DNA of 57,283 nt, counting the filler, from a bacterium (GTDB lineage Bacteria; UBA9089; CG2-30-40-21; SBAY01), in the NCBI GenBank assembly GCA_040757115.1. It is 3 parts of 3 records of this genome, joined end to end, with 100 filler letters (N's around TTAATTAATTAA, not from the genome) between each part and the next. Parts side by side here need not be neighbours in the genome. Positions count along the whole stretch, not along the records: positions 38,354 to 57,283 come from JBFLYA010000062.1; 2 more parts are not named here. One strand, given 5' to 3'. How positions within the stretch are numbered: position 1 is the stretch's first letter; each line of letters starts with the position of its first letter. Both the position numbers and the translations under genes were made by a program. Positions 1 through 50,886 of the stretch are shown piece by piece. The notes beneath the pieces were generated by a model. That model saw only the letters and a program-made list of their open reading frames with translations, ran no database searches and was not told where the DNA came from.

Positions 1-267
1 TAATAATTAATTTTTTAATTTTATTTTCAACCCCCACCCCCCAATCTTGGGGGCTTTAATAAGGAATTAGGATTGTGGCATTCAAAATGACCAACAATAT
101 ATATTATACGAGGACGATGAAAATGGGTTTGATGGTTGGATGGTTCAGGTGAAATCAGGCTGAAGCCTGCGGCTACCAGCCTTCTCGAGTCCCGAACCCC
201 GAGTCCCGATTTTCAGAAAAAATCTGTGTAATCTGCGAAATCTGCGGATATTTTCAGGAGGACTGCT

Positions 268-8548: not shown

Positions 8549-8553
8549 AAGGG

Positions 8554-9537: not shown

Positions 9538-9566
9538 AATTACCAAACCAAAGGAGGTGAGTAAAG

Positions 9567-10333: not shown

Positions 10334-10336
10334 CAC

Positions 10337-10411: not shown

Positions 10412-10438
10412 GAGTTAAAAAAGAGAAAGGTGATTAAA

Positions 10439-10857: not shown

Positions 10858-11144
10858 CAGGGTTCTGCAAAATAGGATTTTGGGGAGACAACAAATAAAT
10901 ATTAAATATCAAAATTACAAATCAAATTTCAAAGAGGAAGTAACAAGGTTTCTCAAAGAGTTGGAGGAATTTGGTAATATCTTTGCTTCAAGTATTTTAA
11001 CGCTGAAAGGAAAGAGATAATTTTACATTTTGATATGTAATTTTTATATTTGCTTTTTGCATTTTGCTTTGGAGAAAATTGATAAAAATAGAGGCTTTAA
11101 ATACCCGCTTAAAAACTACAGTTTCCTAATTTTGCAGAACCCTG
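10858..11144. mobile_element. MITE (TIR CAGGGTTCTGCAAAA) carrying the 3' remnant of a four-helix-bundle gene
   Basis: Perfect 15-bp TIR, 11-bp flanking direct repeat AACCAATTACC; interior encodes EEVTRFLKELEEFGNIFASSILTLKGKR*. Confidence 0.88.
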
Positions 11145-11175
11145 AACCAATTACCAAAAAAGGAGGGAAGAATTG

Positions 11176-11538
11176 ATGAAGGTAGCTATAACCGCACAAG
11201 GAGGTTCAATGGATTCTATGGTTGACCCGCGATTTGGACGGGCAAGATTCTTTGTGGTCTGTGATACCGAAACAGACAGCTTTGAGGTGGTTGATAACCA
11301 GCAGAATCTTCAAGCTATGCAGGGCGCAGGTATCCAGGCAGCACAGAATGTTGTCAGTACTGGAGCCCAAGTAGTCATGACCGGCAACTGCGGGCCAAAG
11401 GCATTTATGACCTTGCAAGCAGCAGGAATTAAAATTGTTATTGGGGCAGAGGGGAAGGTATCCGAAATGCTTGAGAAATTCAAGAAGGGTGAGTGTCAAT
11501 ATGCTCAGAATCCCAATGTTGAAGGACATTGGGTATAA
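11176..11538 (+). CDS. NifB/NifX-family (orange protein-like) protein
   Basis: VDPRFGRARFF, GAGIQAAQ, TGNCGPKAF, PNVEGHW. Confidence 0.9.
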   Translation: MKVAITAQGGSMDSMVDPRFGRARFFVVCDTETDSFEVVDNQQNLQAMQGAGIQAAQNVVSTGAQVVMTGNCGPKAFMTLQAAGIKIVIGAEGKVSEMLEKFKKGECQYAQNPNVEGHWV

Positions 11539-11545
11539 ATTTAGT

Positions 11546-11662
11546 CTGGTAATTGGTAACTGGTAATTGGTGATTGGTAATTGGTGATTGGTAATTGGTG
11601 ATTGGTAACTGGTGATTGGTGATTGGTAACCATTTAACCAATTACCATTTAACCAGTTACCA
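11546..11662. repeat. Heptamer tandem repeat / imperfect palindrome
   Basis: About 12 TGGTRAY units followed by about 4 inverted units just before the mrp RBS. Confidence 0.85.
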
Positions 11663-11677
11663 AAAGGAGGAAATAAA

Positions 11678-12943
11678 ATGTCAGAAGATAAAACATGTCA
11701 GAGTTGCTCAACAGATAGTTGTTCGGCTCAAGGGAAGAGGGCTGATGAGAGTATCCAAGAGTTCCAGGAGCGGCAGCAGCTTGCCCACCGAATGTGCCAG
11801 ATAAAGCATAAGATAATGGTGTTATCTGGTAAGGGTGGGGTAGGTAAAAGCACGGTTGCAGCAAACTTAGCTGTCTCTCTTACTTTAGCAGGCAAAAAGG
11901 TAGGCCTGCTGGATGTAGACATCCACGGTCCCAGTATTCCAACCTTACTTAACTTAGAAAGACGGATGGTAGATGTTGGGACCGATGTTATCTATCCGAT
12001 TAGTATTGGCGATAATTTGAAGGTTATGTCCATTGGTTTGCTCTTGCAGGGAGACTCCCAGGCGGTCATCTGGCGTGGGCCATTAAAGATGGGTGCAATC
12101 AAACAATTTCTCAAGGATGTTGAATGGGGACAACTTGATTATTTGATAATTGATTCACCACCAGGTACAGGGGATGAACCATTATCAGTGTGCCAGTTGA
12201 TTGAAGATGCAGATGGAGCAATTATTGTCACCACACCTCAAAAGGTATCCCTGGTAGATGTGAAAAAGTCGGTTAATTTCTGCCATATGCTTAATCTGCC
12301 CGTTTTAGGTGTGTTAGAGAATATGAGTGGGTTTGTCTGCCCGCAATGCGGTAAGCAAGTGGATGTGTTTAAGTCGGGCGGTGGAGAGAAGCTGGCTAAG
12401 GCCTTTGGTGTGCCTTTCCTGGGACGGATACCGATCGATCCTGATATTGTTCATTCTTGCGATGATGGTAAACCTTATGTCTATCACTATTCCCATTCTG
12501 AAACAGCAAAAGCATTTGCCAGAGCAACTGTTCCTATCCTGGAGATGGACGGAAAAGGTGAAGTTACCAATCACCAGTTACCAATTACCAAAAACAAGGA
12601 GGATGGTAAGATGAGAATTGCTATGCCGATAGCAGAAGGACAACTCTGTATGCACTTCGGCCACTCAGAGAAATTTGCCTTCTTTGATGTTGAGGATGGC
12701 CGGATTAAACAGACACAGATGCTCACCCCACCACCTCATGCCCCTGGTGTTATCCCTAAATGGGTGCATGAGCAGGGGGCAACAGTTGTTATTGCCGGAG
12801 GGATGGGACAGCGGGCAGTAAGCCTGTTTGAGCAACAAGGTGTGCATGTGGTCGTTGGTGCTCCAGGCCATACCCCAGAAGAAATTGTTAATGCCTACCT
12901 TAATGGCACACTTGAGGTAGGTGCTAATGTGTGCGACCATTAA
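11678..12943 (+). CDS. mrp: Mrp/ApbC Fe-S carrier ATPase fused to a NifB/NifX domain
   Basis: [43 protein letters not shown]-terminal HFGH..PPPHAPG..GGMG..NVCDH. Confidence 0.92.
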
Positions 12944-12980
12944 GTATCACCGGAATTTATCCTTTATGGAGGGTTAGAAG

Positions 12981-13151
12981 ATGGGTTTAAAGATTATCTT
13001 AGGAATACTAATTGGTGGAGGAATAGGGTTTGCAGTGGGCTATTTTGGCCATTGCTCCAGTGGAACTTGCCCGTTGACCAGTAATCCGTGGGTAAGCACC
13101 TTTTTGGGAATGGCAATTGGTGCAGCTATAGGGTTTAATCTTGGGAAATAG
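12981..13151 (+). CDS. DUF6132-like small membrane protein (56 aa, absent from ORF track)
   Basis: MGLKIILGILIGGGIGFAVGYFGHCSSGTCPLTSNPW...; GGAGG RBS; fills the operon gap. Confidence 0.8.
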   Translation: MGLKIILGILIGGGIGFAVGYFGHCSSGTCPLTSNPWVSTFLGMAIGAAIGFNLGK

Positions 13152-13164
13152 AAAGGAGTTGTTA

Positions 13165-14508
13165 ATGCCTGAAAAAGTTGTGATTATTGGTGGTGGTGTG
13201 GCTGGAACTAATCTGGCTAAAAAGCTGGTGGACAAAAACAGGGGGTTTGAGATTACCCTGGTTAAAAAGGAAACCCATGCCAGTTACTCTCCCTGCGGCA
13301 TACCGGATGTGTTGTCTGGCAAAATATCCGGGATGGAGAGTATCCTGAAAGACTCTCTGGATAATTACCTCACAAAACGAGGGGGGACAATCAAATCCGG
13401 AGTTAGGGTGACAAAACTTAATATAAACTCTAAGACCGTGGAGACCGATGTAGGAGAGACTTTAGGTTTCGATGTGCTGGTTATCGCTACTGGCCGCAGG
13501 CCGGCTATACCCAAGCTAAATGGTATAGGGCTGAAAGGGGTTTATAGTCTGTGTGATCTGGAAGACAGCCTCAGATTATATGATGCCCTAAGAGAGGCAG
13601 AGAGAGCGGTGATTATTGGAGCCGGGCCTATTGGGCTGGAGTGTGCCACTGCCTTTAGAGACCAGGGGATAAAAACCAGCCTGGTTGAAGCAAAGTCCCA
13701 CCTTTTACCCGGTCTGCTTGATGAGGATATGGCCGGGCTGGTTGAAGCTAAACTTAAGGCGCAGGGGGTGAATATCTTTACCTCCGAACAGGTTACTGAG
13801 ATAAATGGGAAGGATGCGGTTGAGTCTGTAAGGGTTAATGATAGTGAAATCAGGGCAGACCTTGTTCTGGTGGCCACAGGGATTTGGCCAAACAGTGAAT
13901 TGGCAAAGGAGGCTGGCATTGAGGTTGGTGTGAATAACGGTATCCTGGTAGATTCAAGACACCGGGTAATAAAGGATAGCCAAGCATTAGCTGATGTCTA
14001 TGCCCTGGGTGACTGCGTAGAGGTCAAAAACAGAATTACCGGCACTTACCAGCTTTCTCCAATAGTTTCTACCGCGGTGCTTGCTTCCAGAATAATAGCC
14101 GAAAATATCTGCGGGGAAGATATTTGCCTGGATAGTTACCTCAGTCCTTATATCATGGTGGCCGGCGGTCTTGAGATTGGGGCGGTGGGTATAATTTCAC
14201 ACCAGGCAGAACAGATTGGGGCTAATATTGTCATAGGAAAAGGCTCCGGGCATACTAAGGTAAATTATTACCCGGAGGCTAAAAAGATGACCGTAAAACT
14301 TCTTTCAGACAGAGAGTATTTGCTTGGTGCCCAGATTGTGGGTGGTGAAGATGTGAAGGAAAGAATCAATGCTATTACTGGGTTGATTCATTTAAAGGTG
14401 AAGGTGCAGGATATTCTACAGATGGAGCGCTGCTTTACCCCATCTCTTTGCACCTCAAGAGATGCTTTCCAAAGGGCCGTTGAAGAATTGTTAGGTGTTT
14501 TGGCATGA
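13165..14508 (+). CDS. CoA-disulfide reductase / NADH oxidase-family flavoprotein
   Basis: GGGVAG, SYSPCGIP, ATG, IGAGPIGLE, YALGDC; ATG 13165 behind AAGGAG. Confidence 0.88.
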   Translation: MPEKVVIIGGGVAGTNLAKKLVDKNRGFEITLVKKETHASYSPCGIPDVLSGKISGMESILKDSLDNYLTKRGGTIKSGVRVTKLNINSKTVETDVGETLGFDVLVIATGRRPAIPKLNGIGLKGVYSLCDLEDSLRLYDALREAERAVIIGAGPIGLECATAFRDQGIKTSLVEAKSHLLPGLLDEDMAGLVEAKLKAQGVNIFTSEQVTEINGKDAVESVRVNDSEIRADLVLVATGIWPNSELAKEAGIEVGVNNGILVDSRHRVIKDSQALADVYALGDCVEVKNRITGTYQLSPIVSTAVLASRIIAENICGEDICLDSYLSPYIMVAGGLEIGAVGIISHQAEQIGANIVIGKGSGHTKVNYYPEAKKMTVKLLSDREYLLGAQIVGGEDVKERINAITGLIHLKVKVQDILQMERCFTPSLCTSRDAFQRAVEELLGVLA

Positions 14509-15143
14509 GCTTGAAAGAATACATCCCAAATTTTACCAATAAAGAGATAGAGGATAATCATACTCGTTTTATCGAAAGGGTTGAACTTTATAGGCAAAAG
14601 GGGCTTGATCATAACAAGAACCGTAGATTTATCCTCGAAAAAGCCGCTCCCCTAAAAGGCAGAATCCTTGAGCTTGGCACTGGTACCGGTTATACAACTC
14701 TGGCTCTGGCAAAAGCAGGATATGAGGTAACTGCTGTGGATAGTGATGAGGAAATGCTCAGAATTACTGCCCTGAACCTTGCTTATGAAAGACTTCTAAC
14801 AAAGGTTAGACTTTTTATAATGGATGCCGCCTCGCTTGTTTTCGACAGCTATAGCTTCGATAATGTGATAGCCGTCGCCCTATTTCATCACCTTGCTGAG
14901 CCTGAGAGGGTGCTTTCTGAAATGGATAGGGTGTTAAAAGAAAAGGGCAAAATTATCATCGCTGATTTTAATGAGAGGGGGATGGAGCTAATAAGAGCTG
15001 TTCATAAGAAAGAAGAGCGGGAGCATCAGGACTTAGGTGTTGGCAGGGAAAAGGTTCTTTCATATTTATCGGGTTTGGGATATGATATAGAAGATTATGC
15101 GGATGAGTTTCAGTGGGTCTTAATCGCTGTAAAAGGAGCCTAA
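14505..15143 (+). CDS. Class I SAM-dependent methyltransferase
   Basis: ILELGTGTG, MDA..L.F..FD, FHHL..P..LSEM.RVLK. Confidence 0.88.
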   Translation: MSLKEYIPNFTNKEIEDNHTRFIERVELYRQKGLDHNKNRRFILEKAAPLKGRILELGTGTGYTTLALAKAGYEVTAVDSDEEMLRITALNLAYERLLTKVRLFIMDAASLVFDSYSFDNVIAVALFHHLAEPERVLSEMDRVLKEKGKIIIADFNERGMELIRAVHKKEEREHQDLGVGREKVLSYLSGLGYDIEDYADEFQWVLIAVKGA

Positions 15144-15147
15144 CAGA

Positions 15148-16011
15148 ATGAAAACATACTTAGATTGTATACCATGCTTCTTCAAACAGGCCCTTGATGC
15201 AGCCAGGATTGCCGGTTGTAATGAGGCAAAACAGAAAGAGATATTGGATAAATTATGTAAATTAATATCTGAATTCGATCTCAACAGTTCTCCACCTGTG
15301 ATGGGCAGGGCTTTCTATCGGCTGGTTGAGAAGGTATCTGGTAACTCTGACCCGTTCAATGAGGTTAAGGAAAAGGCCAACAAACTGGCCGTGGGGCTTT
15401 ATCCAAAACTAAAGGAGTTAGTAGAGCACTCAGAGGATAGGCTGCTTATGGCCATAGAACTGGCTATTTCTGGCAATGTAATAGACTATGGGGTTAAGAA
15501 TCAGCTGGATGTTGATTCCCAGATAGAAAGGGTTTTAAGCGGTAAATTCCCCACCCAAACCAAGGCATTATTTGAGTACAAAAGATTTAAGGAGGCACTG
15601 GCCAGTGCTGAGACAATCCTGTATCTGACCGATAATACAGGAGAAATACTCTTTGATAGGATTTTGATTGAGGAGCTTAACAAAGAGGTTGTCTGTGCCC
15701 TGAGGGATAAACCTATTATAAATGATGCTACTATTGAAGATGCTAAGTATTGCGGATTGGATAAAGCAGCTGTGGTAATCTCATCTGGCTGTGATGCCCC
15801 GGGAATACTTTTAGACCGCTGCTCTGAAGAATTTCTCCACCTTTATGAGCAGGCAGATTTGATTATCAGCAAAGGCCAAGGGAATTTTGAGGCACTAACA
15901 GATGAAGATAAACCAATATACTTTTTATTTAAGGTGAAATGCCCGGTAGTGGCTAAAGATGTCGGTGGTGAAGTTGGAGATATAGTTCTAAAGGGACCGG
16001 ATAAATGGTAA
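15148..16011 (+). CDS. ARMT1/DUF89 damage-control phosphatase
   Basis: CIPC, GNVIDYG, DNTGE, PIINDAT, SKGQGNFE, KVKC. Confidence 0.9.
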   Translation: MKTYLDCIPCFFKQALDAARIAGCNEAKQKEILDKLCKLISEFDLNSSPPVMGRAFYRLVEKVSGNSDPFNEVKEKANKLAVGLYPKLKELVEHSEDRLLMAIELAISGNVIDYGVKNQLDVDSQIERVLSGKFPTQTKALFEYKRFKEALASAETILYLTDNTGEILFDRILIEELNKEVVCALRDKPIINDATIEDAKYCGLDKAAVVISSGCDAPGILLDRCSEEFLHLYEQADLIISKGQGNFEALTDEDKPIYFLFKVKCPVVAKDVGGEVGDIVLKGPDKW

Positions 16012-16086
16012 CTGGTTAACTGGTAACTGGTTACCAGTTACCAGTTACCAATTACCAATTACCACCAATAAAGGAAACATACTTCT

Positions 16087-16797
16087 ATGAAGATTAAGAT
16101 ATTGGCGGATAGCTATGCAGTAAGCAGAAGGTTTTCTACAGGTTGGGGTGTAGCCTTTTTAATTGGGGAGGAGCTGTTATTTGATACTGGAGAGCGGGGA
16201 GAGATATTGTTTCATAATATGGAGCAGATGGGTGTCTCAGCCACAGATTTAAAAACGGTGGTTATCTCCCATGACCACTGGGACCATACCGGAGGACTGT
16301 GGGCGCTGTTAGAGCAGAATCCTCAGATTAAAGTTTATGCCTGTCCTAATTTTAGCTCGGAATTCAAGGAGAAGGTCGGCTTCGCTGGAGCAGAGCTGAT
16401 TGAAGCCAGCCGCTTTACTCAGATAGCCGAAGATATTTACACCACCGGTGAGATTGCCGGGACATACAATGACAAGTATATGGCTGAGCAGGCATTAATA
16501 GTTAAATCCCAGAGAGGACTGACAATCCTTACTGGCTGTGCCCATCCAGGGATAATTAAGATTCTGGAGAAGGTGAAAGAAAATCTGGCGGAAGACATCT
16601 ATTTAGTTATGGGTGGATTCCATCTAATAGAAGCAGATGAACGGGTTGTTGACTTAATTATAGATAGGTTTTGCCAGTTAGAGATAGCCTCAGTTGCTCC
16701 TACCCATTGCAGCGGTGAAGAAACAAAGGCGTTATTTAAAAAAGAGTATCAGAATGACTTTATACCTGTAAAAACAGGAATGGCCATAGAGGTTTGA
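16087..16797 (+). CDS. MBL-fold metallo-hydrolase
   Basis: LFDTG, SHDHWDHTGG, GCAHPG, GGFH, PTHCSG. Confidence 0.9.
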   Translation: MKIKILADSYAVSRRFSTGWGVAFLIGEELLFDTGERGEILFHNMEQMGVSATDLKTVVISHDHWDHTGGLWALLEQNPQIKVYACPNFSSEFKEKVGFAGAELIEASRFTQIAEDIYTTGEIAGTYNDKYMAEQALIVKSQRGLTILTGCAHPGIIKILEKVKENLAEDIYLVMGGFHLIEADERVVDLIIDRFCQLEIASVAPTHCSGEETKALFKKEYQNDFIPVKTGMAIEV

Positions 16798-16813
16798 TAG
16801 GAGGTGATGAGCT

Positions 16814-17035
16814 ATGCCTATATATGAATATAGATGCCAGAAATGTGGTGAGAAGTTTGAGCTTCTGCAAGGGATAAATGAAACTCCTGTATGCAATAGT
16901 TGTGGAAGTAAAGAGTTGTCCAGGATCTTCTCCTCAGCAGCAGTGATGGGTGGAAGTAGCCAGACAGAGGCTTCAGGCAGTTGTTGTGGATTAACCAATC
17001 CCTGTAGTGAGCCCAAAAGATGCTGTGGGGCTTAA
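16814..17035 (+). CDS. FmdB-family zinc-ribbon protein
   Basis: MPIYEYRCQKCG..CNSCGS..SRIFS, Cys-rich tail. Confidence 0.88.
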   Translation: MPIYEYRCQKCGEKFELLQGINETPVCNSCGSKELSRIFSSAAVMGGSSQTEASGSCCGLTNPCSEPKRCCGA

Positions 17036-17063
17036 AATAGGGCTGGCAGAGTCGCAGAAAAAA

Positions 17064-17333
17064 TTAAGGTTGTTTCAGAACCTTATTATGGGGGCCTACC
17101 CGGCGAAGGATATAAGTATCTTTTTCAATCTTGAAGGAGAATCGGATACCTTTGGTGATTCTTCCTTCCCAGATGCCTTTCTTGCCCTTCTCTCCTTCCA
17201 TCTTTTTAGTGTGGAGGGATGGATGGTGAGGATTTTTTAGAAGAAGCCGAATCTGTTTATTTATCTGTTCTTGAGTTTGAATAGGTAGATTTTTATAGTC
17301 ATACTTAAAGCTATCAGTATAACGAGCCTTCAT
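17064..17333 (-). CDS. RelE/YafQ-like type II toxin
   Basis: 89 aa, basic; NPHHPSLHTKK..IWEGRI..R..F..LRRVGPH. Confidence 0.75.
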   Translation of the reverse strand: MKARYTDSFKYDYKNLPIQTQEQINKQIRLLLKNPHHPSLHTKKMEGEKGKKGIWEGRITKGIRFSFKIEKDTYILRRVGPHNKVLKQP

Positions 17334-17336
17334 ATA

Positions 17337-17588
17337 TTAACTCCTAAGAGATTTAATTAAATCTTCAGGATTATCAAAGGGACCTGTTAGCCGTCCAGCT
17401 TTAATATCCTCATCCGCTTCGGCTTCTGCCTTCTCCCAATCCCAGTTATCGAAGTATGGTGGAAGGGTAAGAACATCATCTAAAATCTCTTTTACGGCTT
17501 CGTCTCTTGAAGGCTTATGATGAGTTTCGCAATACTCATCTACACGGACTAATAAATCATCTGGTATCTGAATTGTTAGGGTAGTCAT
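17337..17588 (-). CDS. Ribbon-helix-helix antitoxin
   Basis: TLTIQIPDDLL.RVD..SRDEAV; acidic EAEADEDIKAGR..F tail; directly upstream of the toxin. Confidence 0.72.
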   Translation of the reverse strand: MTTLTIQIPDDLLVRVDEYCETHHKPSRDEAVKEILDDVLTLPPYFDNWDWEKAEAEADEDIKAGRLTGPFDNPEDLIKSLRS

Positions 17589-17608
17589 CTTTATCACCTC
17601 ACCGATTT

Positions 17609-17637
17609 AGTATAACAGGTTTTATTGGAATTGTCAA
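17609..17637 (-). promoter_or_regulatory. sigma70 promoter of the TA pair
   Basis: TTGACA-N17-TATACT. Confidence 0.75.
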
Positions 17638-17663
17638 CAGATTTTTAGGAAAGGAAGGTAGAA

Positions 17664-18524
17664 ATGATTATTGCCGTTGCCAGTGGTAAAGGAGGGACAG
17701 GTAAGACCACTATTGCCGTAAATTTAGCCCTGTCGCTTGATTGTGTTCAGTTGTTAGACTGCGATGTGGAAGAACCTAATGCCCATATCTTTCTAAAGCC
17801 TGAGATTAGAGAAACTCAAACAGTAAACATTCCCGTGCCCAGGGTGGATGAAAGTAAATGCAACTATTGCAGCAAGTGTGCTAAGGTTTGTGCCTATAAT
17901 GCCATTGCGGTAATCAAGCAGAAGGTGCTAATCTTTCCTGAGATGTGCCATGGCTGTGGGGGCTGCACCTTGCTCTGCCCACAGGAGGCTATTAGCGAAG
18001 TTAATAAGGAGATTGGGGTGGTAGAGCTTGGGCAAAGCAATGGGGTGCAATTTGTCCATGGTAGGTTGAACATTGGTCAAGCTATGTCCCCGCCCCTTAT
18101 CCGGGCGGTTAAAAGGAATATCAATCCTACCCGACTCTGTATTATTGATGCCCCGCCAGGCACCTCCTGCCCGGTAATCGAGGCGGTCAAAGAAACGGAT
18201 TTCTGCCTGCTGGTGACTGAGCCGACCCCATTTGGTTTGTGTGACCTGGAACTGGCGGTTGAAGCGATTCGGCTCCTGAAAATTCCCTTTGGGGTGGTTA
18301 TCAACCGGGCAGATATTGGGGATGAGGGAGTAAGAGAATACTGCTTGCGAGAAAATATCCCTATTTTGATGGAGATTCCAATGGATAGAAGGATTGCTGA
18401 GGCTTATTCCATTGGGGTGCCTATGGTGAAAAGCCTGCCTGAATGGAAAGAGAGATTCAGAGAATTATATAGTTCCATCTCAGGGGTTTCGGAGGATGTT
18501 ATGGGTGTCAATAGTATTATATGA
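17664..18524 (+). CDS. MinD/ParA-like P-loop ATPase with inserted 2x[4Fe-4S] domain
   Basis: SGKGGTGKTT, DCDVEEPN, CNYCSKCAKVC, CHGCGGCTLLCP, DAPPGTSCP, VTEPTPFG. Confidence 0.9.
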   Translation: MIIAVASGKGGTGKTTIAVNLALSLDCVQLLDCDVEEPNAHIFLKPEIRETQTVNIPVPRVDESKCNYCSKCAKVCAYNAIAVIKQKVLIFPEMCHGCGGCTLLCPQEAISEVNKEIGVVELGQSNGVQFVHGRLNIGQAMSPPLIRAVKRNINPTRLCIIDAPPGTSCPVIEAVKETDFCLLVTEPTPFGLCDLELAVEAIRLLKIPFGVVINRADIGDEGVREYCLRENIPILMEIPMDRRIAEAYSIGVPMVKSLPEWKERFRELYSSISGVSEDVMGVNSII

Positions 18525-18549
18525 GTAAACGCTCCAATTAAATTGGAGG

Positions 18550-18797
18550 TTAGCCTTATAGAAATAAATAAAGCCACTGATATACACTGATTGAACACGG
18601 ATAAAGAATGGGTTTAAAAGCGACGGAGATAGAAGTTGGGCTGCTCATAAATTTTGGAAGGGAAGAAGTAGAATTTAAACGATTTGTTTATTAAAATCTG
18701 TGTTTCATCCGTGTAAATCCGTGGCTAAAAAATAATAATTAGGCTAACCAATCGCTGCACCTGACCCTCGCTTCGCTCGGGCAGGTGAGCTTGGTCG
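18550..18797 (+). mobile_element. Integron-type gene cassette at a secondary site
   Basis: Begins G|TTAGCCT and ends with an attC-like site whose inverse core AGGCTAAC is the exact complement. Confidence 0.72.
18608..18694 (+). pseudogene. Internally deleted GxxExxY-family gene
   Basis: MG+LKATEIEVGLLINFGREEVEFKRFVY* resembles the GxxExxY C-terminus; flanked by ACACGGAT/ATCCGTGT inverted arms. Confidence 0.75.
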
Positions 18798-18803
18798 TTA
18801 TTT
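18742..18803 (+). other. attC-like recombination site
   Basis: GGCTAAC-CAATC-GCTGCACCTGACC-(CTCGCTTCGCTCG)-GGCAGGTGAGC-TTGGTC-GTTA: R and L boxes with extrahelical bases. Confidence 0.78.
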
Positions 18804-19088
18804 TTCAGTATTTTCTAATTTTGATATTAAAATTTTTCTTGACAGGATATTTTATTTGTGCTACTCTATAAATAGCCTAACTTATAATGCAGTAAAATAA
18901 AAACTGCCAATAGGTAGTATAATCTAAGGTTAGACTAATAAAAATAATCACACAGAGACATAAAGTCACAAAGGAATTGAATAAAACAATAAACCTTTGT
19001 GTTCTTTGTGGCTTTGTGTGAGAAAATAAAAAGGAGATATTTTAGGGTCAAACCGTAAATGTGGAATGCACAATAATTCGGTGAGGCA

Positions 19089-19188: not shown

Positions 19189-19314
19189 TGATTGTGGAAA
19201 ACAACAAATTTCCATAAATTTCTATTAGTTTCTATTAATTTCAATTTTTTTAATAATATCTCCCTATCTCCTTAATCTCCACATCTCCTTTTGTTACACT
19301 ACCTGAACGCTTAC
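19189..19314 (-). mobile_element. Partial GTAAG/GTAAC-family MITE
   Basis: Near-identical reverse complement of 44793-44917; ends CCTGAACGCTTAC. Confidence 0.8.
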
Positions 19315-19392
19315 ATTTATTTCTATGTCTTCTCTGTTCCTCTGCGTCTCTGCGGTAAATTACCACCTGAACGGTTACGAAAAAACTTTATC

Positions 19393-19424
19393 ACCCAATC
19401 TTCTTGGCGAAGGTTGGGTTTTTT
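19393..19424 (+). terminator. Riboswitch expression-platform terminator without visible aptamer
   Basis: ACCCAATCTTCTTGGCGAAGGTTGGGTTTTTT, identical to the terminators at 32617 and 35680. Confidence 0.8.
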
Positions 19425-19504
19425 GTTGGATAAACGGTCATAACCGTGCGATTCACAGAAATAGCTTTTAGTTCGAGTGTCTGACATTATTTTCAGGAGA
19501 ACCA

Positions 19505-32228: not shown

Positions 32229-32437
32229 CCGTCTTGTTAGTCGATATACCATCCGCTTAGCATATACAGGTGAATCATTGCAATATATTCGTAAATATCC
32301 ACAAGATGTTCTATCGCATTATCTGTCTAATGTAGTCTCATTTTGACAGCCAAAATTTAGCACGGACTTCGTCAATTCGTGCAATTCGTATTCTTCCCCC
32401 AAATGACTGACGCATTACTGGGTTGAAAAAATTTTAG

Positions 32438-32466
32438 TTGACAAACAATGAGTGATATGCTATAAT
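32438..32466 (+). promoter_or_regulatory. sigma70 promoter upstream of riboswitch 1
   Basis: TTGACA-N17-TATAAT with TG extension. Confidence 0.85.
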
Positions 32467-32477
32467 AGAAAATAGTC

Positions 32478-32648
32478 AGATAGGTAGAGGAAGTCCTTGT
32501 GAGATTCAAGGCACTGCCCCGCAACGGTAATATCATCTAAAAAATGATGAGTCCGGTCGATTACCTATCTTTGAAAGTACTTTCGCGGGAAGGGAATAAC
32601 TAAAGAAAAACTTATTACCCAATCTTCTTGGCGAAGGTTGGGTTTTTT
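32478..32648 (+). ncRNA. Cobalamin riboswitch (short, class-II-like) with terminator
   Basis: AGATAGGTA/TACCTATCT closing stem, GGAA, GTGAGATTC, ACTGCCCCGCAACGGT, B12-box-like GAGTCCGG, TTCGCGGG kissing loop, terminator 32617-32648. Confidence 0.9.
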
Positions 32649-32712
32649 GTTGGATAAACGGTCATAAGCGTGCGATTCACAGAAATAGCTTTTAGTTCGA
32701 GTGTCTGACATT

Positions 32713-32764
32713 ATTTTTAGGAGAAACCGTCATGCCCCGCTGGGGCACAAAGGAAGATGAAAAT
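32713..32764 (+). repeat. 51-52 bp structured site (ATTTTYAGGAGAA..CATG-stem-CACAAA..GATGAAAAT)
   Basis: Central stem CCCC-GCT-GGGG; homologous to 47548-47598 and 47706-47756. Confidence 0.8.
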
Positions 32765-32767
32765 GTA

Positions 32768-32912
32768 TGGAGTGCGGTAGCTTGCTACCGCTTTCGGACA
32801 AAGCGAAAGCAAGCTTTCGCACTCCAAAGCCTATTTTCAGGGGAAATAGGAATGTAGTGAGGGTCTTTAGACCCGTTATAAATAGGAAACGCACCTAAAG
32901 GTGCTCACTACA
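32768..32912. repeat. REP-like palindrome doublets
   Basis: TGGAGTGCG...CGCACTCCA pair and GTAGTGAG...CTCACTAC pair (GTAG-type REP). Confidence 0.65.
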
Positions 32913-33009
32913 TTTTCAGGCAGTATCCAGTATAGTATGAAGTATTTTCCCCCTTTCCTACTTCCTACTTGCTTGGTATGCTGAATAGTTACAAAGGAGG
33001 TAATAAAAG

Positions 33010-35226
33010 ATGAAGAAGTTTTGGTTAATGATTGGATTAGGATTAGGTTTAGGATTAGGTTTGACATTTGCTTCAAAGGAGATTATCCTTGCTCAAGAGC
33101 CTTTTGAACTTGAAGAGGTGGTTGTTACCGCCACAAAGGGCGAGAAAAGGATAGAGGATGTGCCGGTTAGCACATCAGTCGTAACGCAAAAAGAGATAGA
33201 AGAGAAAAAGGCAGTCTTTGTCGATGAAGCCCTCAAATATGAGCCGGGGGTCTATCTTAAGCGGGCTAAATTTGCAGATATGGGTAATACAGTTACCCTG
33301 CGTGGGTTTAGTAATCAGAATAGAACATTAGTCCTCCTTGATGGACAATCATTAAATGATGCTTATACTGGCAATGTGGAATGGTCTGCCCTACCTCTGG
33401 AAAATGTTGAAAGGATAGAAATAGTTGAGGGTCCAGTCTCAAGCCTGTATGGTGGTAATGCTATGGGTGGGGTGATAAATATTATTACGAAAAAGCCAGA
33501 TGTTGAAAGTCTGCTCTTTAAGAGTTCAGCCTCTACTAACAATACCTATGTCCATTCCTTAGGCTATAGTAATAAATTCAATCGGTTTTCTCTCCGATTC
33601 AATCTGGAGAAGAAGTCAAGTGAGGGAGAAAGAACGGATTTTGTGGTTAAATCTGTCTCACCCGGCACCGGAGGCACACGGGTGACCGGCTGGCAAAAGA
33701 CAAAGAATGCTAAAGGCATTGATGCTTACTTGATTGGAGATACCGGGAAAAATTGCTGGGAACAAAACCAGTACAGCGGCAAATTTACCTACTCGATAAA
33801 CCCAATATCTAATCTATACCTTGCTTTAAACTATGGTCAACGGGAATACGGTTATTCGGACCCACAGAGCTATCTTAAGGATAGTAATGGCAAGCCAGTT
33901 GATAACGGTAAGATTGATCTGGGTGTAGGCACAATGACTATCTATCCCAAAGATTTCTTAAGCAGCTGGGGAAGATACAATAGTAATCTTTATCATCTCG
34001 GCTACGATACCCTGCTTGGTCTGATTAATATTAAGTCCAAGATAAGCTTAAACAAGAGGCAAAGTTTCTATATTGTCCCACAGAGCGGGGCAACTGCTCA
34101 AGGAGGTCCAGGCAAATTTAATGATACTGCCCCCAGTCAGGATATTCAGGCAGAGATACAGACAGATATCCCATTCCTTCAAGATAATCTCTTAAGTATT
34201 GGTTTAAACTATCGCTTAGATAAAACAATAATCAAAGAATATGATCTTATCGACTGGAAGAATGAAGATTCAAAAAAGACAACTAATCCGACAGTTGAAA
34301 TTAAGGGGAAGGCAAAAATATCCGCTGTTTATGCTCAGACTGAGCTGGAAGTAATCAACAACTTAAAAGCTTTTCTTGGTGCCCGGTATGATACCTGGAA
34401 GAATTACGATGGCTCAAACCGTAATGGCACAAACTTGACTACCTATACGGCTATGGATAAGAAATCTATCTCCCCCAAGATTGGTTTTCTTTATAAGCCA
34501 GGATTTGAAAAGGGAATTTATCATCTGGATAACATTCGTGCATCCTGGGGTAAAGCTTTTAAACCACCAACTATCTATGAATTATATAGAACCTGCTTGA
34601 TGGGAAAAACTACCTATGAAAGCAACCCTAACCTTATTCCAGAAACCAGCCAGTCATGGGAAGTAGGTTTGGACCAGAGGCTAAACAAAAAGGTAACTAT
34701 TTCTGTTACCTATTTTCAAAGCAAGATAAAAGACCTTATCTACAGTAAGATTATTTCTTCAACGATTAAGCGAAAGGAGAATGCCGGAGAAGGAAAAATC
34801 GCTGGATTTGAGCTCGATACTAAGGTAAATCTTACCGATTCTCTATCTGCCTTTGGAAATTATACTCGGCAAGATACCGAAATGTTAGAAAATCCAGCTG
34901 AACCAAGTACCATTGGCAAAAATTTTGTGTTTGTTCCAGAGAAGATGTTTAATCTTGGACTTATCTTTTCTAAAAAAGCTGTAAGCTCCTCATTGCTCTG
35001 GCATTGGGTAGATAAGGTTTATCTTAATTCAGACAACTCTGATACCGAGGAAGAGGTCTATGGTGCGTATGATAAAATCAATACGGTGGATGCCAAACTG
35101 GGTTATAACCTTAAGGAGAATTTGAACCTGTCTTTAGCAGTGGATAATCTTTTTGATAAGAGATACTATCAGCACTATAAATCCCCAGGTCGAACATTTA
35201 CTGTGGAGGCGAAGTGGAAATACTAA
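33010..35226 (+). CDS. TonB-dependent outer-membrane receptor (BtuB-like)
   Basis: Signal peptide, EEVVVTATK TonB box, LRG..LVLLDG, ERIEIV.GP.S.LYG.NAMGGVINIIT, NLFD..Y..PGRTF..Y; riboswitch upstream. Confidence 0.92.
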   Translation: MKKFWLMIGLGLGLGLGLTFASKEIILAQEPFELEEVVVTATKGEKRIEDVPVSTSVVTQKEIEEKKAVFVDEALKYEPGVYLKRAKFADMGNTVTLRGFSNQNRTLVLLDGQSLNDAYTGNVEWSALPLENVERIEIVEGPVSSLYGGNAMGGVINIITKKPDVESLLFKSSASTNNTYVHSLGYSNKFNRFSLRFNLEKKSSEGERTDFVVKSVSPGTGGTRVTGWQKTKNAKGIDAYLIGDTGKNCWEQNQYSGKFTYSINPISNLYLALNYGQREYGYSDPQSYLKDSNGKPVDNGKIDLGVGTMTIYPKDFLSSWGRYNSNLYHLGYDTLLGLINIKSKISLNKRQSFYIVPQSGATAQGGPGKFNDTAPSQDIQAEIQTDIPFLQDNLLSIGLNYRLDKTIIKEYDLIDWKNEDSKKTTNPTVEIKGKAKISAVYAQTELEVINNLKAFLGARYDTWKNYDGSNRNGTNLTTYTAMDKKSISPKIGFLYKPGFEKGIYHLDNIRASWGKAFKPPTIYELYRTCLMGKTTYESNPNLIPETSQSWEVGLDQRLNKKVTISVTYFQSKIKDLIYSKIISSTIKRKENAGEGKIAGFELDTKVNLTDSLSAFGNYTRQDTEMLENPAEPSTIGKNFVFVPEKMFNLGLIFSKKAVSSSLLWHWVDKVYLNSDNSDTEEEVYGAYDKINTVDAKLGYNLKENLNLSLAVDNLFDKRYYQHYKSPGRTFTVEAKWKY

Positions 35227-35421: not shown

Positions 35422-35500
35422 CCTGCAATCGGCAAGTGAATACTGAACAATCAGCTAATTCGTGTAATGTGACTTGTCAACAAAAATTTAAAAAATTTAG

Positions 35501-35529
35501 TTGACAAACAATAAGCGATATGCTATGAT
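35501..35529 (+). promoter_or_regulatory. sigma70 promoter upstream of riboswitch 2
   Basis: TTGACA-N17-TATGAT, near copy of 32438-32466. Confidence 0.8.
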
Positions 35530-35540
35530 AGAAAATAGTC

Positions 35541-35711
35541 AGATAGGTAGAGGAAGTCCTTGTGAGATTCAAGGCACTGCCCCGCAACGGTAATATCATC
35601 TAAAAAATGATGAGTCCGGTCGATTACCTATCTTTGAAAGTACTTTCGCGGGAAGGGAATAACTAAAGAAAAACTTATTACCCAATCTTCTTGGCGAAGG
35701 TTGGGTTTTTT
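35541..35711 (+). ncRNA. Cobalamin riboswitch, second copy
   Basis: Identical by eye to 32478-32648. Confidence 0.9.
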
Positions 35712-35723
35712 GTTGGATAAAAA

Positions 35724-44679: not shown

Positions 44680-45029
44680 GTAACCATTTAGGTAATCCTT
44701 TACCGCAGAAACGCAAGAGTTCACAGAGAGGAAAATATCTTTTTTTTTCGTGTTTTTCGCGTTTTTCGGCGTTTAAAAAGGCTTAAAAATAGGTAAGCGT
44801 TCAGGTGGTGTAACAAAAGGAGATGTGGAGATTAAGGAGATAGGGAGATATTATTAAAAAAATTGAAATTAATAGAAACTAATAGAAATTTATGGAAATT
44901 TGTTGTTTTCCACAATCAATTTCTACCTATTTCTATAAATTTCAATCTATTTCTATTATCTTATCTCCATATCACTCTTATCTCCTTATCCCCTTTCTTA
45001 CACTTTTGATATATAGCCTGAACGGTTAC
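44680..45029. mobile_element. Nested GTAAC/GTAAG-family MITEs
   Basis: GTAACCATTTAGG at 44680 (inverted copy near 48842-48948); inner GTAAGCGTTCAGG 44793 ... CCTGAACGGTTAC 45029. Confidence 0.75.
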
Positions 45030-46525: not shown

Positions 46526-46586
46526 ATTGAGAAAGTTATAGATATTTTCGTGCAAAAGTTTGTTGGCAAATTTTCAGAGGAAAAAA

Positions 46587-47423
46587 ATGGAGATAATCAA
46601 AGTAAAAGATGCCGGATTTTGTTTTGGGGTAAAAAGGGCAATAGATTTAGCTCTGGAAGCGGCTAAAAACGAAAAAAATCATGTCTATACATTAGGTCCG
46701 CTGATTCATAATCCCCAGGTGTGTGAAGAATTAAGGAAACAAGGGATAATTGAGGCTAAATCATTAGATGAGATAAAATCAGGCGTGGTTATCCTTCGTT
46801 CTCACGGCGTCCCACCTAAATTATACCAGGAAATATCCAATGCCGGGCTTAAAATAGTGGATGCGGTTTGCCCGAGTGTGAAAAAAGTCCAGGAAATAGT
46901 GCTTAAGCTAAAAGAAGAAGGTTATAAGGTAGTTGTTGTTGGAGAAAAAAATCATCCAGAGGTAATGAGTATCGTTGGAACTTTAGAAGGTGAAACGATT
47001 GTTGTCGAAAACCCTCAAGAGGCAAAAAAACTTAAAATAAGGCGTAAAATAGGCGTTATTGCCCAAACAACACAAACTATTGGTAATTTTAAAAAGGTAG
47101 TTGAAATACTTTTAGATAAGTCCAGGGAATTAAAGATAAATAATACCATTTGTAAGGCAGTAGAAAATATTCAGAAAAGCTCCTTGAATGTGGCAAAACA
47201 AGTAGATTTAATGTTAGTTGTTGGCGGTAAAAATAGCGCCAATACAACTCGCCTTTTCCAACTGTGTAAAAATAAGACAAAATTCGCCTATCACATTGAA
47301 ACACCAGATGAAATAGCCCCGAAATGGTTAAAAGGGATAGAAAAAATTGGTGTTACAGGCGGCACATCTACCGCCAATTGGCTTATTGACCAGGTAATAG
47401 AGAGATTAAAGTATATGGAGTAG
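46587..47423 (+). CDS. ispH: 4-hydroxy-3-methylbut-2-enyl diphosphate reductase
   Basis: AGFCFGVKRA, IHNPQV, RSHG, DAVCP, HPEV, QTT, NTIC, VGGKNSANT; ATG 46587. Confidence 0.95.
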   Translation: MEIIKVKDAGFCFGVKRAIDLALEAAKNEKNHVYTLGPLIHNPQVCEELRKQGIIEAKSLDEIKSGVVILRSHGVPPKLYQEISNAGLKIVDAVCPSVKKVQEIVLKLKEEGYKVVVVGEKNHPEVMSIVGTLEGETIVVENPQEAKKLKIRRKIGVIAQTTQTIGNFKKVVEILLDKSRELKINNTICKAVENIQKSSLNVAKQVDLMLVVGGKNSANTTRLFQLCKNKTKFAYHIETPDEIAPKWLKGIEKIGVTGGTSTANWLIDQVIERLKYME

Positions 47424-47438
47424 TTCACTTCTATTAGA

Positions 47439-47756
47439 TTCTCCTGAAAATATGGAAGTAGAAAGTAGAGAGTAGAGAGTAGAAAGTAAAGAAAACATCA
47501 CTCCTCACACTTATCTTCCCATCTCCCACCTTCTATCTCCTACCACTATTTTCATTCTCATTTGTGAACCAACGGTTCATGACCGTTCTCCTGAAAATAA
47601 TCCGCAGATTTCGCAGAGGACACAGATTTTTATTTTTTTATCTCCCCGCTGGCGGGAGATTGAGAGGTTAGGGGATTCTTTTATTCCCGAATCCCGAGCC
47701 CCTTAATTTTCATCGTCATTTGTGAGTCGTAGACTCATGAGCGTTCTCCTAAAAAT
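47439..47756 (-). repeat. Mini-array: two 51-bp structured sites and a terminal half-site separated by unrelated ~100-bp cargos
   Basis: Sites 47706-47756 (stem AGTC-TAC-GACT) and 47548-47598 (AACC-GTT-GGTT); half-site 47439-47451. Confidence 0.8.
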
Positions 47757-47774
47757 CAGGCTCTCATTTCTTTC

Positions 47775-48650
47775 TCAATATCCAAGTTCCTTTAGCATCC
47801 CCAGATTATCCTTCCATTTCTTTTTTGGTTTAATCCAGAGTTGAAGAAATACCCCCCGGTTAAGAAATACCTCTATTTCTTTTCGAGCTCGCTCCCCTAC
47901 CTTTTTTAACTTCTCACCCTTTTTGCCAATTAAAATTATCTTCTGTGATGCTCTTTCTACATAAATTACAGCCCGGATGTAATCTTTTTTTCCTTCTCTT
48001 TCTTTAAACTCCTCAATAACAACCGTTGTTGAATAAGGAATTTCCTGTCCATATTCCTCAAATATCTTTTCCCGAATTATCTCACTCACAAAAAATTTCT
48101 CAGGTTGGTCGGTTAAAATGTCTGTTGGGTAATAAGGTGGGTTTTTAGGTAGATATTTCATAATACACTCAAGTAACTCTCCAGTTCCGTCTTTTTTAAT
48201 CGCAGAAATAGGCATTATCTCTTTAAAATCATAAACTTTTTGCACAGAGTCAATTAGTGGCAAAAGCGACTCTTTTGAAACTAAATCAATTTTATTGATA
48301 ACCAGAATTGTGTCTTTTTTATAATCAAGGAATTCAAGTTCAGGTTGCTCCTGGGGTTCTATCATAAGTATAACTAAATCAGCATCTTGTAAGGCTAAAT
48401 GTAGGGTTTTGTTCATTAATTCGTGGAGTTTATACTTAGGTTCTAATATCAACCCAGGTGTATCCAAAAATATAATCTGGTAGTTTTTATCATTGAGAAT
48501 ACCCAGTATTTTATGTCTTGTGGTTTGAGGTTTTGGGGTAACCGCAGACAACTTTTCGCCTAAAAATAGGTTAAGCAAGGTTGATTTTCCAACATTAGGT
48601 TTTCCAACAATAGATACATAGCCACAATGGAATACATTTTTTTCTTTCAT
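47775..48650 (-). CDS. era: GTPase Era
   Basis: GKPNVGKST, KPQTTR, DTPG, NKID, EIIREK, KH domain IGKKG. Confidence 0.96.
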   Translation of the reverse strand: MKEKNVFHCGYVSIVGKPNVGKSTLLNLFLGEKLSAVTPKPQTTRHKILGILNDKNYQIIFLDTPGLILEPKYKLHELMNKTLHLALQDADLVILMIEPQEQPELEFLDYKKDTILVINKIDLVSKESLLPLIDSVQKVYDFKEIMPISAIKKDGTGELLECIMKYLPKNPPYYPTDILTDQPEKFFVSEIIREKIFEEYGQEIPYSTTVVIEEFKEREGKKDYIRAVIYVERASQKIILIGKKGEKLKKVGERARKEIEVFLNRGVFLQLWIKPKKKWKDNLGMLKELGY

Positions 48651-49346: not shown

Positions 49347-49417
49347 CTAAATTCGGTAACTGGCAAATGATGAGTGGTGATTAGTTACCAATTACCATTT
49401 ACTAATTACCAATCATT

Positions 49418-49494
49418 GGGTCGTTAGCTCAATCAGGCAGAGCAGGGGCCTCTTAAGCCCAAGGTTATAGGTTCGATTCCTATACGGCCCACCA
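49418..49494 (+). tRNA. tRNA-Lys(CTT)
   Basis: Loop CTCTTAA, GGTTCGATTCC, ACCA end. Confidence 0.92.
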
Positions 49495-49586
49495 ACTGGT
49501 AACTGGTAACTGGTAATTGGTAACTGGTGATTGGTAACTAATTACCATTCACCACTTACCATTTACCAAAAATAAGGAGGTTTTTA

Positions 49587-49933: not shown

Positions 49934-50886
49934 ATGGCAGAAGATTATTTTAAAGAAATAAAACAAATGTTAAAAGAAATTGCTCAAGGTCATAAAGAGT
50001 TTGAGGAAGAACAAAGAAAGACAGATGAAAAAATCCGTAAGGTAGGTGAAGAAATCGAAATATCTTCGAAAAAGACAGATGAAAAAATCCGTAAGGTAGG
50101 TGAAGAAATCGAAAGACTTACGAAAAGAACAGATGCGGAAATCCGTAAGACAGGTCAGGAAATTGAAAGACTTATGAAAAGAACAGATGCGGAAATCCGT
50201 AAGGTTAATAAATCAGTAGCAGGAATAAGTGATGGTTTTGGTAGAATGACTGAAGGATTCGCACTTGCTTCTATAGAAGAAGTATTCAAGAAACTTGGAA
50301 TANNNNNNNNNNNNNNNNNNNNNNNNNNNNNNNNNNNNNNNNNNNNNNNNNNNNNNNNNNNNNNNNNNNNNNNNNNNNNNNNNNNNNNNNNNNNNNNNNN
50401 NNGAAAAGAACAGATGCGGAAATCCGTAAGGTTAATAAATCAGTAGCAGGAATAAGTGATGGTTTTGGTAGAATGACTGAAGGATTCGCACTTGCTTCTA
50501 TAGAAGAAGTATTCAAGAAACTTGGAATACATATTAATAAGACCCTTCCAAGAGTCAGAAGTAGAAGAAATGGTGACCATCTGGAAATAGACTTACTTAA
50601 TGTAGCTAAAAGTGATAAGAAAGAGATGGTTATTATTGTAGAAGTGAAGAGTTATCTCCGAACCGAGGATGTCAATGATTTTTTAAATGATATATCAAAG
50701 TTTTATGATTTTTTTGAAGAGTATAGAGATAAAGAGATAATAGGTGTGATTGCCTTTATGAATTATGCAACAGGGGCAAAGGAATATGCAGAAAAAAGAG
50801 GATTCTATCTCCTATTTTGTTCAGAGGATTTAATGAAAATGGTAAATAAAAAAGGTTTTACACCACAGGTGTGGAGTTACAATTAA
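49934..50886 (+). CDS. Coiled-coil repeat protein with PD-(D/E)xK-like C-terminus (DUF3782-like), split by an assembly gap
   Basis: 18-aa repeats KTDEKIRKVGEEIE, G..G.M.E, EIDLL..IVEVKS; 50176-50302 is repeated at 50403-50529 across the gap. Confidence 0.75.

Follow-up and report, generated by a model that had tools for sequence, protein, structure and literature searches.

The stretch of DNA analysed here (57,283 nucleotides, filler included; hereafter the window) belongs to the genome assembly of an uncultivated groundwater bacterium (GCA_040757115.1, here G000; 4.32 Mb, 462 contigs, 36.8% G+C). It consists of three joined contigs, C420 (positions 1-19088), C421 (from 19189) and C422 (from 38354), with N/TTAATTAATTAA linkers between them. 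On C422 the genes era (47775-48650, minus strand) and ispH (46560-47423, plus strand) converge on an array of repeats that occupies the minus strand from 47756 down to 47439; starting 18 nt past the era stop codon and reaching to the end of ispH, it holds two full sites, each followed by a body module, and a half-site that closes it. A third full site begins at 32713. Because the window is a composite, this copy lies on a different contig from the array, in the leader of a TonB-dependent receptor gene (33010-35226) and downstream of an adenosylcobalamin (AdoCbl) riboswitch (32464-32602). A preliminary description of this DNA had listed these three sites together with four half-sites, and had read them as structure-selected recombination sites of a cassette system organised like an integron. 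The three full sites were borne out (Table 1), as were the half-sites at 19489, 32833, 47439 (minus strand) and, with one mismatch, 250. Allowing up to one mismatch, the half-site pattern ATTTTYAGGRGAA matched the window 9 times against 1.03 matches expected, and none of 100 shuffled sequences reached 9 matches. The integron analogy did not hold: the repeat arrays are not integron-type cassettes. As set out below, the sites are probably the conserved linker of lineage-specific, high-copy, non-coding repeats that bear a ribosome-binding site (RBS), with a function like that of REP2 repeats and a mosaic build like that of the bacterial interspersed mosaic elements (BIMEs). What we observed directly is the anatomy of these units, the covariation of their hairpin, their sense bias and RBS use, their spread, their turnover between sister species and the insertion of an element at one fixed position within them.

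Genome-wide the repeat family is large: the assembly carries 247 exact half-sites and 90 centre patterns, an nhmmer profile returned 212 site matches, 132 of them near full length, and a covariance-model search gave at least 150 matches. The units follow a fixed order, namely a Shine-Dalgarno (SD) junction ATTTTCAGGRGAA, a spacer of 5-7 nt, an ATG, a hairpin, a flank ending in GATGAAAAT, a body and a closing junction, and this grammar of junction, site core, body and junction is repeated along the array, with all copies direct and head-to-tail and with up to 4 complete units per array. The T and G of the ATG open the hairpin, which is 5-7 bp long and free in its stem sequence. Of the 212 profile matches, 197 had a centre that could be parsed, and these centres comprised 70 distinct sequences, with about seven stem types (AGTC, AGCC, AACC, CCCC/CCCT, CCCAC, TCCAC and CCGAC) between an invariant TG and CA; the site flanks read ..TCA before the stem and CAAA after it. 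The invariant ATG...CA supplies closing T-A and G-C pairs, and the central stem, which had been described as 4 bp long, is a real hairpin of 6 bp in which these closing pairs are joined by 3-5 variable ones. A peptide starting at the site's ATG was also considered; its frame varies with the length of the hairpin and the peptides, judged by eye, are not conserved, and a coding role was therefore dropped. [quoted passage not shown] Literature searches returned no description of this repeat family.

The small hairpin covaries. Across 41 distinct copies two-sided change was seen in 3 of the 5 inner pairs, 99.0% of the cells pair, and none of 500 shuffles reached the score. With sequences from other genomes included (G001, G002, G003, G004, G005 and G011), the alignment grew to 78 distinct copies, in which two-sided change again affected 3 of 5 pairs (88 cells), 97.4% of the cells pair and 0 of 500 shuffles reached the score, compared with 24-50% pairing in slid controls; this alignment was fitted to the covariance model and so leans towards structure. 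The proposal that the central hairpin is selected for its structure, made from three copies, is thus upheld by the covariance model and the scan of the genome and its relatives. A perfect stem of at least 5 bp is present in 155 of the 197 parsed copies, and the stem mismatches (14 G.T, 21 A.C and 10 other) show no strand bias. Folded as DNA, single sites are weakly stable, at -5.1 to -7.4 kcal/mol (z -1.5 to -2.7). The inverted ATTTTCA/TGAAAAT ends are also present as described, but two-sided change was found in 0 of 7 pairs of the helix that they could form, and this outer helix is neither supported nor refuted. The two 7-mers are invariant and close each body or, alternatively, each site; when whole arrays were folded, they closed the long body hairpin where one was available and closed the site only at the first unit.

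The segments between sites, taken at first for unrelated cargos, are multi-copy repeat modules, mostly long hairpins. A unit body is 30-200 nt long and is itself a hairpin of short tandem repeats, after which the closing junction follows; over all 147 bodies between sites (128 distinct) lengths run from 30 to 260 nt, mostly 60-150 nt, and the sequences fall into repeat families. The 3′ arm of the body consists of 2-4 copies of a 7-9-nt unit and ends at the RBS junction. In three body families (41 copies) the array strand forms 7-9 G.U pairs and the other strand 1-2, with minimum free energies of -37 to -43 kcal/mol and -20 to -25 kcal/mol, respectively, and the array strand is the more stable one in 85 of the 128 distinct bodies. 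With regard to a target-site duplication around the bodies, the hexamer before TGAAAAT, judged by eye on printed arrays, tracks the site subfamily rather than the GGRGAA after ATTTTCA. The A/G variant of the junction is weakly tied to left and right units alike, at the edge of what shuffles give, and so does not assign the junction to either side.

The half-site, interpreted earlier as half of a recombination site, is in fact an SD junction that serves downstream genes. The 247 junctions are followed by a site core in 106 cases, by a start codon at 0-11 nt with an open reading frame (ORF) of at least 60 amino acids in 55, and by other modules or sequence in 86. The 55 start codons comprise 50 ATG, 3 TTG and 2 GTG. 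As controls, the same test gave 4.3% at random intergenic positions, 6.5% at random positions anywhere and 175 of 1335 at other AGGAGAA sites. Gene-proximal junctions carry GGAGAA rather than GGGGAA at a ratio of 43 to 12, compared with 55 to 51 for internal junctions (Fisher p = 0.0012). When the anchor was relaxed to ATTTTYA+GG, a start codon opening an ORF of 100 amino acids or more followed 100 junctions, mostly at 8-12 nt. Conservation ends right at GGAGAA in the gene-proximal junctions and extends through ACGNNCATG in 107 internal ones. With genes called as crude long ORFs (2967 ORFs, 78% of the genome), the repeats were grouped into 197 arrays or solo copies, nine of them within an ORF call. 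Those with a gene on both sides are strongly biased in orientation: 86 are sense and 7 antisense to co-directional genes, with 9 between divergent and 7 between convergent genes.

We then compared complete units, of which 92 are bounded by two half-sites. Of the pairs identical at 98% or more over at least 95% of their length, 27 link units of different arrays and 3 link units of one array. The near-identical units in different arrays indicate that whole units move between loci. The best BLAST partner lies within the same array for 12 of 52 units versus 1.1 expected, which indicates that some tandem duplication occurs too. The sister species of the same genus, G001, was compared at five loci (era-ispH, leuA, an hdrA-like gene, C156:20724 and C156:19859): arrays are present in both species at 5/5 loci and their unit content differs at 5/5, within flanks that are 95-99% identical. 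At C156:20724 the hairpin and body have been cleanly replaced between a constant junction plus CGGTCATG and a constant ATTTTCAGGAAAATAACA. The idea of exchangeable blocks therefore stands, in the form of near-identical units across arrays and a one-unit swap between sister species, but the blocks are not integron-type cassettes. At C156:19859 the downstream gene differs between the species and synteny breaks at the array. A related observation concerns a gene whose product begins MNNNLDWLKK..., which keeps its junction and spacer but lies, in the two species, behind different arrays and upstream genes (G000 C156:19859, G001 C601:3350 and G000 C90); the recurrence of one gene in these settings indicates that the arrays mark rearrangement breakpoints.

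The family is confined to a narrow lineage. G001 has at least 150 covariance-model matches, four other genomes of the family have 29 (G003), 12 (G004), 2 and 1, and 3 of 8 genomes from two further families have 1-2 weak matches each; the other 17 genomes have none, and 9 of the 31 genomes searched have a match. Distant copies retain the core GAAAC-N3-CATG-hairpin-CACAAAGGAGGATGAAAAT, the body and the closing (A)TTTTCAG. At the three loci compared in other genera, no array or junction occurs at any syntenic or orthologous position that was found: leuA (G003 and G002) and the hdrA-like gene (G005) have an ordinary RBS, and the era-ispH spacer of G004 has a heptamer-repeat hairpin only. In G003 era and ispH are on separate contigs, and a single site-like unit precedes ispH.

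An insertion element also targets the site. In 22 copies the site is present as far as CACAAAG, its left two thirds, and then passes into one identical sequence, and all 22 lie 93-127 nt from a contig end; BLAST of this left end of the element gave 25 matches in G000, none of them inside a contig. At the right end of the element a 125-nt 'head' sequence occurs in 22 copies, 19 of them within 102 nt of a contig end, one being window 1-125. All 22 right ends are followed by GA[CG]GATGAAAA(T), the right-hand remainder of the site, with a body after it, and the site halves found at the left and at the right of the element are complementary. No target duplication is visible at the junctions, and the dinucleotide AG (CT on the other strand) occurs on both sides of the joint, in the left flank ..CAAAG and in the right end of the element ..ACGAG. 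Integration is specific for site and orientation, without long duplication, at 22/22 left and 22/22 right junctions, which confirms the part of the preliminary description that saw in the site a target of recombination at the DNA level. A check for filled and empty alleles gave the corresponding empty sites at one left and one right junction: G001 has an intact site at the ortholog of G000 contig C460, where G000 runs into the element, and upstream of leuA the site is intact in G000, whereas G001 shows the right end of the element there. There are about 22-25 element ends in G000 and 3 matches in G001, pointing to recent activity of the element.

The interior of the element was not recovered in G000, G001 or other relatives, and an exact pattern search of metagenome contigs gave 0 matches. 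Beside one right end (G000 C197 4400-4833) there are about 235 nt with repeated TGTGGATAA-like motifs, which resemble DnaA boxes, and the start of an ORF (38 amino acids with a helix-hairpin-helix motif) that is single-copy in the assembly. A link of this ORF to an IS110 transposase was tried and rejected: Pfam gave no match, BLASTP none to the C90 protein of the IS110 type, and the PDB only a helix-hairpin-helix likeness. IS110-family elements integrate into repetitive extragenic palindromes (REPs). We take the behaviour of the present element to be of that kind, as a lead and not as a result, and the AG/CT dinucleotide at the joint may correspond to an IS110 'core'. As in the IS110-type insertions into REPs and other hairpin repeats, the element always has the same position and orientation next to a repeated hairpin, without visible duplication; it differs from them in being known from its ends alone.

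In function, the units resemble the REP2 repeats of Neisseria and IR-A and IR-B of Borrelia, which are described by Delihas (2011, PMC3184786) as intergenic, lacking a transposase, lying directly upstream of ORFs, containing an RBS, an ATG and stem-loops, and thought to derive from the 5′ untranslated region of a gene. The position before ORFs, the RBS, the ATG and the stem-loops all recur here, which speaks for a shared functional class, not for homology. REP2 comprises about 26 copies of 120-150 bp that occur as single units (Delihas 2011), whereas the present family has at least 150 copies stacked in mosaic arrays, a covarying stem, exchangeable bodies and an insertion element that targets the unit. 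With the BIME and REP-REPIN sequences of Escherichia coli the units have in common that they are high-copy extragenic hairpins in mosaic clusters and in transcribed spacers, with their structure kept while the stems vary. Unlike the present site, REPs carry a GTAG/CGTC tag (PMC3733652), occur as inverted pairs and have a cognate REP-flanked REP-associated tyrosine transposase (RAYT). The genome does contain a separate, genuine pair of this kind, a RAYT-like Y1 gene of 154 amino acids with inverted GTAG-type REPs (L023 1401-1986, C430), and REPs of that type, whose stem differs by compensated changes, make up the inverted pair within the window array at 32846-32920. Direct repeats of the heptamer TAACTGA occur in Beggiatoaceae, cyanobacteria and Bacteroidetes a few nucleotides before the start codons of unrelated genes (MacGregor 2015, PMC4679880), and the tandem copies in the 3′ arms of the bodies, which end at the RBS junction, are similar to them; unlike those repeats, the short repeats here are paired with a complementary arm into long hairpins, embedded in larger units and of several repeat-unit types. 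Reminiscent of the Beggiatoaceae repeats are also heptamer-repeat hairpins (GGTAACT, GGTAATT, GGTGATT and complements) elsewhere in the window (8981-9063, 10761-10857, 11529-11660, 16008-16064 and 49352-49575), several of which lie beside tRNA genes; the hairpin in the era-ispH spacer of G004 resembles them. New in the present family are the head-to-tail arrays, the covarying hairpin that holds a start-codon mimic, the exchange of whole units between sister species and the specific integration site.

The mechanism that we propose is as follows. Along the sense strand of 5′ leaders and intergenic spacers the units follow one another head-to-tail, and the final junction serves as the working RBS of the downstream gene. 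Duplication, replacement and movement of units would take place at the DNA level, probably by recombination in the conserved junctions (left stretch about 13-22 nt, right stretch 9-13 nt). New genes may be captured by crossovers in the SD sequence itself, so that the gene would stay translatable; such crossovers would explain why most arrays lie in sense orientation and why conservation drops sharply after GGAGAA. The hairpin may be kept for one of two reasons: the machinery of copying or targeting reads it, or it hides the transcript's decoy start codon.

Several points weigh against this reading. No recombinase or transposase was found linked to the sites, and the mode of spread is one that we infer. 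The junctions share only 9-22 nt of homology, which is little for an exchange that depends on RecA. The strand signals of the small hairpin and of the body families are not reconciled, since the lack of strand bias among the small-hairpin mismatches argues against purely RNA-level selection and the G.U-rich sense strand of the three body families argues for a single-stranded sense form. The gene calls are crude, and the era-ispH array belongs to the convergent type, where the last junction serves no gene: it adjoins the 3′ end of ispH, and there is therefore no RBS use at that locus. Finally, the 462 contigs of the assembly break at repeats, and array lengths and copy numbers are therefore lower bounds. 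In Logan contigs from three DNA runs the array region is many-fold deeper than its flanks, and contigs break there, so that no usable joints were obtained.

Other explanations of the same data have to be set against these repeats being RBS-bearing linkers. We consider it unlikely that the units are selected cis-regulatory RNA modules that tune mRNA stability or translation, with the shuffling of DNA secondary to this. The means would be 5′ stem-loops, hairpin-masked decoy SD-AUG pairs and short tandem repeats acting as protein-binding sites upstream of the RBS, and the sense orientation (86 versus 7), the working RBS at the end of the array, the strand-specific, G.U-rich hairpins in 41 bodies of three families and the invariant T and G of the ATG within the stem would all fit; REP2 repeats, too, lie upstream of co-regulated genes (PMC3184786). 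Such a role is at odds with the small hairpin, which has no excess of G.U over A.C, and with the arrays that have no following gene, the era-ispH array included. Moreover, array content differs at 5/5 loci between the sister species, and arrays are missing from the positions found in other genera at three loci; turnover and absence together make a poor fit to a conserved regulatory role. We similarly regard as improbable that the units are non-autonomous single-stranded DNA elements moved by a Y1 HUH enzyme (RAYT or IS200/IS605 TnpA) that reads the small hairpin. In favour of such an enzyme are the hairpin with its conserved flanks and free stem and the head-to-tail arrays of one orientation; the genome has 7 Y1_Tnp matches, and one RAYT-like gene sits between inverted GTAG-type REPs that also occur within the arrays (window 32846-32920). 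However, no site match lies at or beside any of the 7 Y1_Tnp genes, the only site matches on those contigs being more than 9 kb away, and the site has neither a GTAG nor a CGTC tag, a feature of REPs (PMC3733652). The copies are direct, without inverted pairs, and Y1_Tnp counts are unrelated to site counts among the relatives: G003, with its 29 sites, shows only two weak Y1_Tnp fragments, G004, with 12 sites, shows 9 matches, and Y1_Tnp occurs in 23 of the 31.

The enzyme of the targeting element, perhaps of the IS110 family and RNA-guided, could also move the units, which would then be its non-autonomous passengers or products of recombination between targets; we consider this quite improbable. 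It would accord with integration that is specific in position and orientation beside the hairpin and without visible duplication, with the AG common to the left flank and the right end of the element, with the resemblance of the element's first bases to the right flank of the site, with the 4 IS110-type DEDD matches in the genome and with the recent activity suggested by the uneven number of ends in G000 and G001. Against it stand the interior that was not recovered from the assembly, the 38-amino-acid ORF start without a Pfam match or a BLASTP match to the C90 protein, and G001 itself, with at least 150 sites but few element ends; moreover, none of the 25 left-end matches is inside a contig, and thus none adjoins the 4 IS110 genes. 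A stronger variant, in which the units form a leader cassette system whose 5′ untranslated modules are cut and pasted at the SD-ATG-hairpin site by the recombinase of this element, possibly an RNA-guided IS110-type enzyme, is likewise doubtful. If it were true, each move would regenerate the RBS of the recipient gene, and about 100 genes would have their translation and mRNA stability rewired, by the cell or by the element, with their coding sequence untouched. By far the least credible is the original reading of attC-like, structure-specific cassette sites run by a tyrosine recombinase, which fails on the defining features that were tested. The likeness is real as far as it goes: structure-selected sites with a covarying hairpin bound one-directional arrays of units, a unit is replaced between relatives, and integron integrases are encoded in the genome. 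The consensus core of attC is RYYYAAC...GTTRRRY at the ends of an imperfect palindrome. The present sites end instead in ATTTTCA/TGAAAAT, have no such cores, and their stems are perfect, without extrahelical bases; they bound no genes, the bodies being mostly 60-150 nt, and they are spread over 197 arrays or solo copies. A comparison is at hand within the genome itself, where a chromosomal integron on C322 (locus L069 5614-16087; intI at 368.6 bits on TIGR02249, cut-off 265) has ORF-bearing cassettes, some in near-identical copies. The attC sites between these cassettes measure about 130 nt, and their CTAAC...GTTAG[ACG]C cores are lacking in the present sites. As this genome has a canonical attC integron elsewhere, membership of our sites in attC fails. 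Further intI matches, mostly partial or broken, are on C223 (also above the cut-off), C423, C22, C18, C251, C62 and C20; intI or tyrosine-recombinase matches occur on 10 contigs in all, where the closest site match is about 860 nt away from one of them (the intI fragment at the end of C18) and none abuts one.

Within the window, the repeats and the element ends are distributed as listed in Table 1. Two leaders (19382-19501 and 32606-32725) are 96% identical over 120 nt and form a paralogous filled/empty pair: past the junction, the first enters the cbiX-cbiC gene and the second enters site 3 and its modules before the TonB-receptor gene. Compared with their orthologues, the alpha-amylase and TonB-receptor loci gave a partial match or only 66-67% identity, too little to be informative. 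A scan of window 1-300, including the right end of the element, for sigma-70-type consensus promoters found none on the plus strand. Rfam 15 at the gathering score identified only tRNAs and two AdoCbl riboswitches in the whole window, with no match to the sites, and only chance sub-threshold matches in 47380-47800.

Table 1. Repeat units, junctions and element ends located in the window
Feature	Position	Strand	Remarks
Right end of multi-copy insertion element	1..113	+	Contig begins within the element
Right part of the interrupted site (GACGATGAAAAT)	114..125	+	Followed by body modules, 126-249
Junction variant ATTTTCAGGAGGA	250..262	+	RBS of alpha-amylase-family gene (ATG 268)
Junction	19489..19501	+	RBS of cbiX-cbiC gene (ATG 19505)
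Full site 3	32713..32764	+	52 nt; stem TGCCCC/GGGGCA, loop GCT; 70.7 bits
Body module, GGAGTGCGGTAGC-type hairpin	32765..32832	+	Same type found in the era-ispH array of the sister species
Internal junction ATTTTCAGGGGAA	32833..32845	+	
Inverted pair of GTAG-type REP hairpins, ending ...ACATTTTCAGG	32846..32920	+	REP type also flanks the RAYT-like gene on contig C430
Junction-like RBS of ispH	46570..46582	+	ATTTTCAGAGGAA, then AAAA, then ATG
Terminal junction (half-site)	47439..47451	-	Abuts the 3′ end of convergent ispH
Body module, 96 nt, AGTGGTAGG family	47452..47547	-	Long hairpin of purine-/pyrimidine-rich short tandem repeats, closed by TGAAAAT/ATTTTCA; stable on the minus strand only, owing to its many G.U pairs
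Full site 2	47548..47598	-	Stem TGAACC/GGTTCA, loop GTT; 68.9 bits
Body module, 107 nt	47599..47705	-	Composite of sub-modules that recur elsewhere in the genome; no unique cargo
Full site 1	47706..47756	-	Junction ATTTTTAGGAGAA, spacer, ATG, stem TGAGTC/GACTCA, loop TAC, right flank ending GATGAAAAT; 67.4 bits

Other repeats of the window were noted in passing. The AdoCbl riboswitch leaders at 32427-32658 and 35490-35721 are 98% identical with different genes behind them, and one of them shares 96% identity with a third leader fragment; such near-identical leaders suggest recent duplication or conversion of whole leaders. A 134-nt inverted repeat (19189-19322 and 44785-44918) is 97% complementary, and 25-mers related to it (TGTGGAAAACAACAAATTTCCATAA and neighbours) begin many contigs, up to 12 per 25-mer; it is probably another high-copy element that breaks the assembly. 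A 54-nt periodic repeat lies within an ORF at 49967-50205 (4 copies), and a 127-nt exact duplicate spans the N run 50303-50402 (50176-50529); these two may be a scaffolding artefact.

That these genomes fall into hundreds of contigs is explained by the repeats, and an automated call of such an array as an integron or a CRISPR-like locus would be an error. If the reading as RBS-bearing linkers holds, some 55-100 genes of this bacterium draw their RBS from a fast-evolving repeat, and the leader content of those genes differs even between sister species. The family would then offer a natural system for the reshuffling of leader structures and for the recognition of a structured repeat by an insertion element, and for seeing how selfish or semi-domesticated repeats enter the 20 nucleotides where a gene is most sensitive and yet leave it functional.

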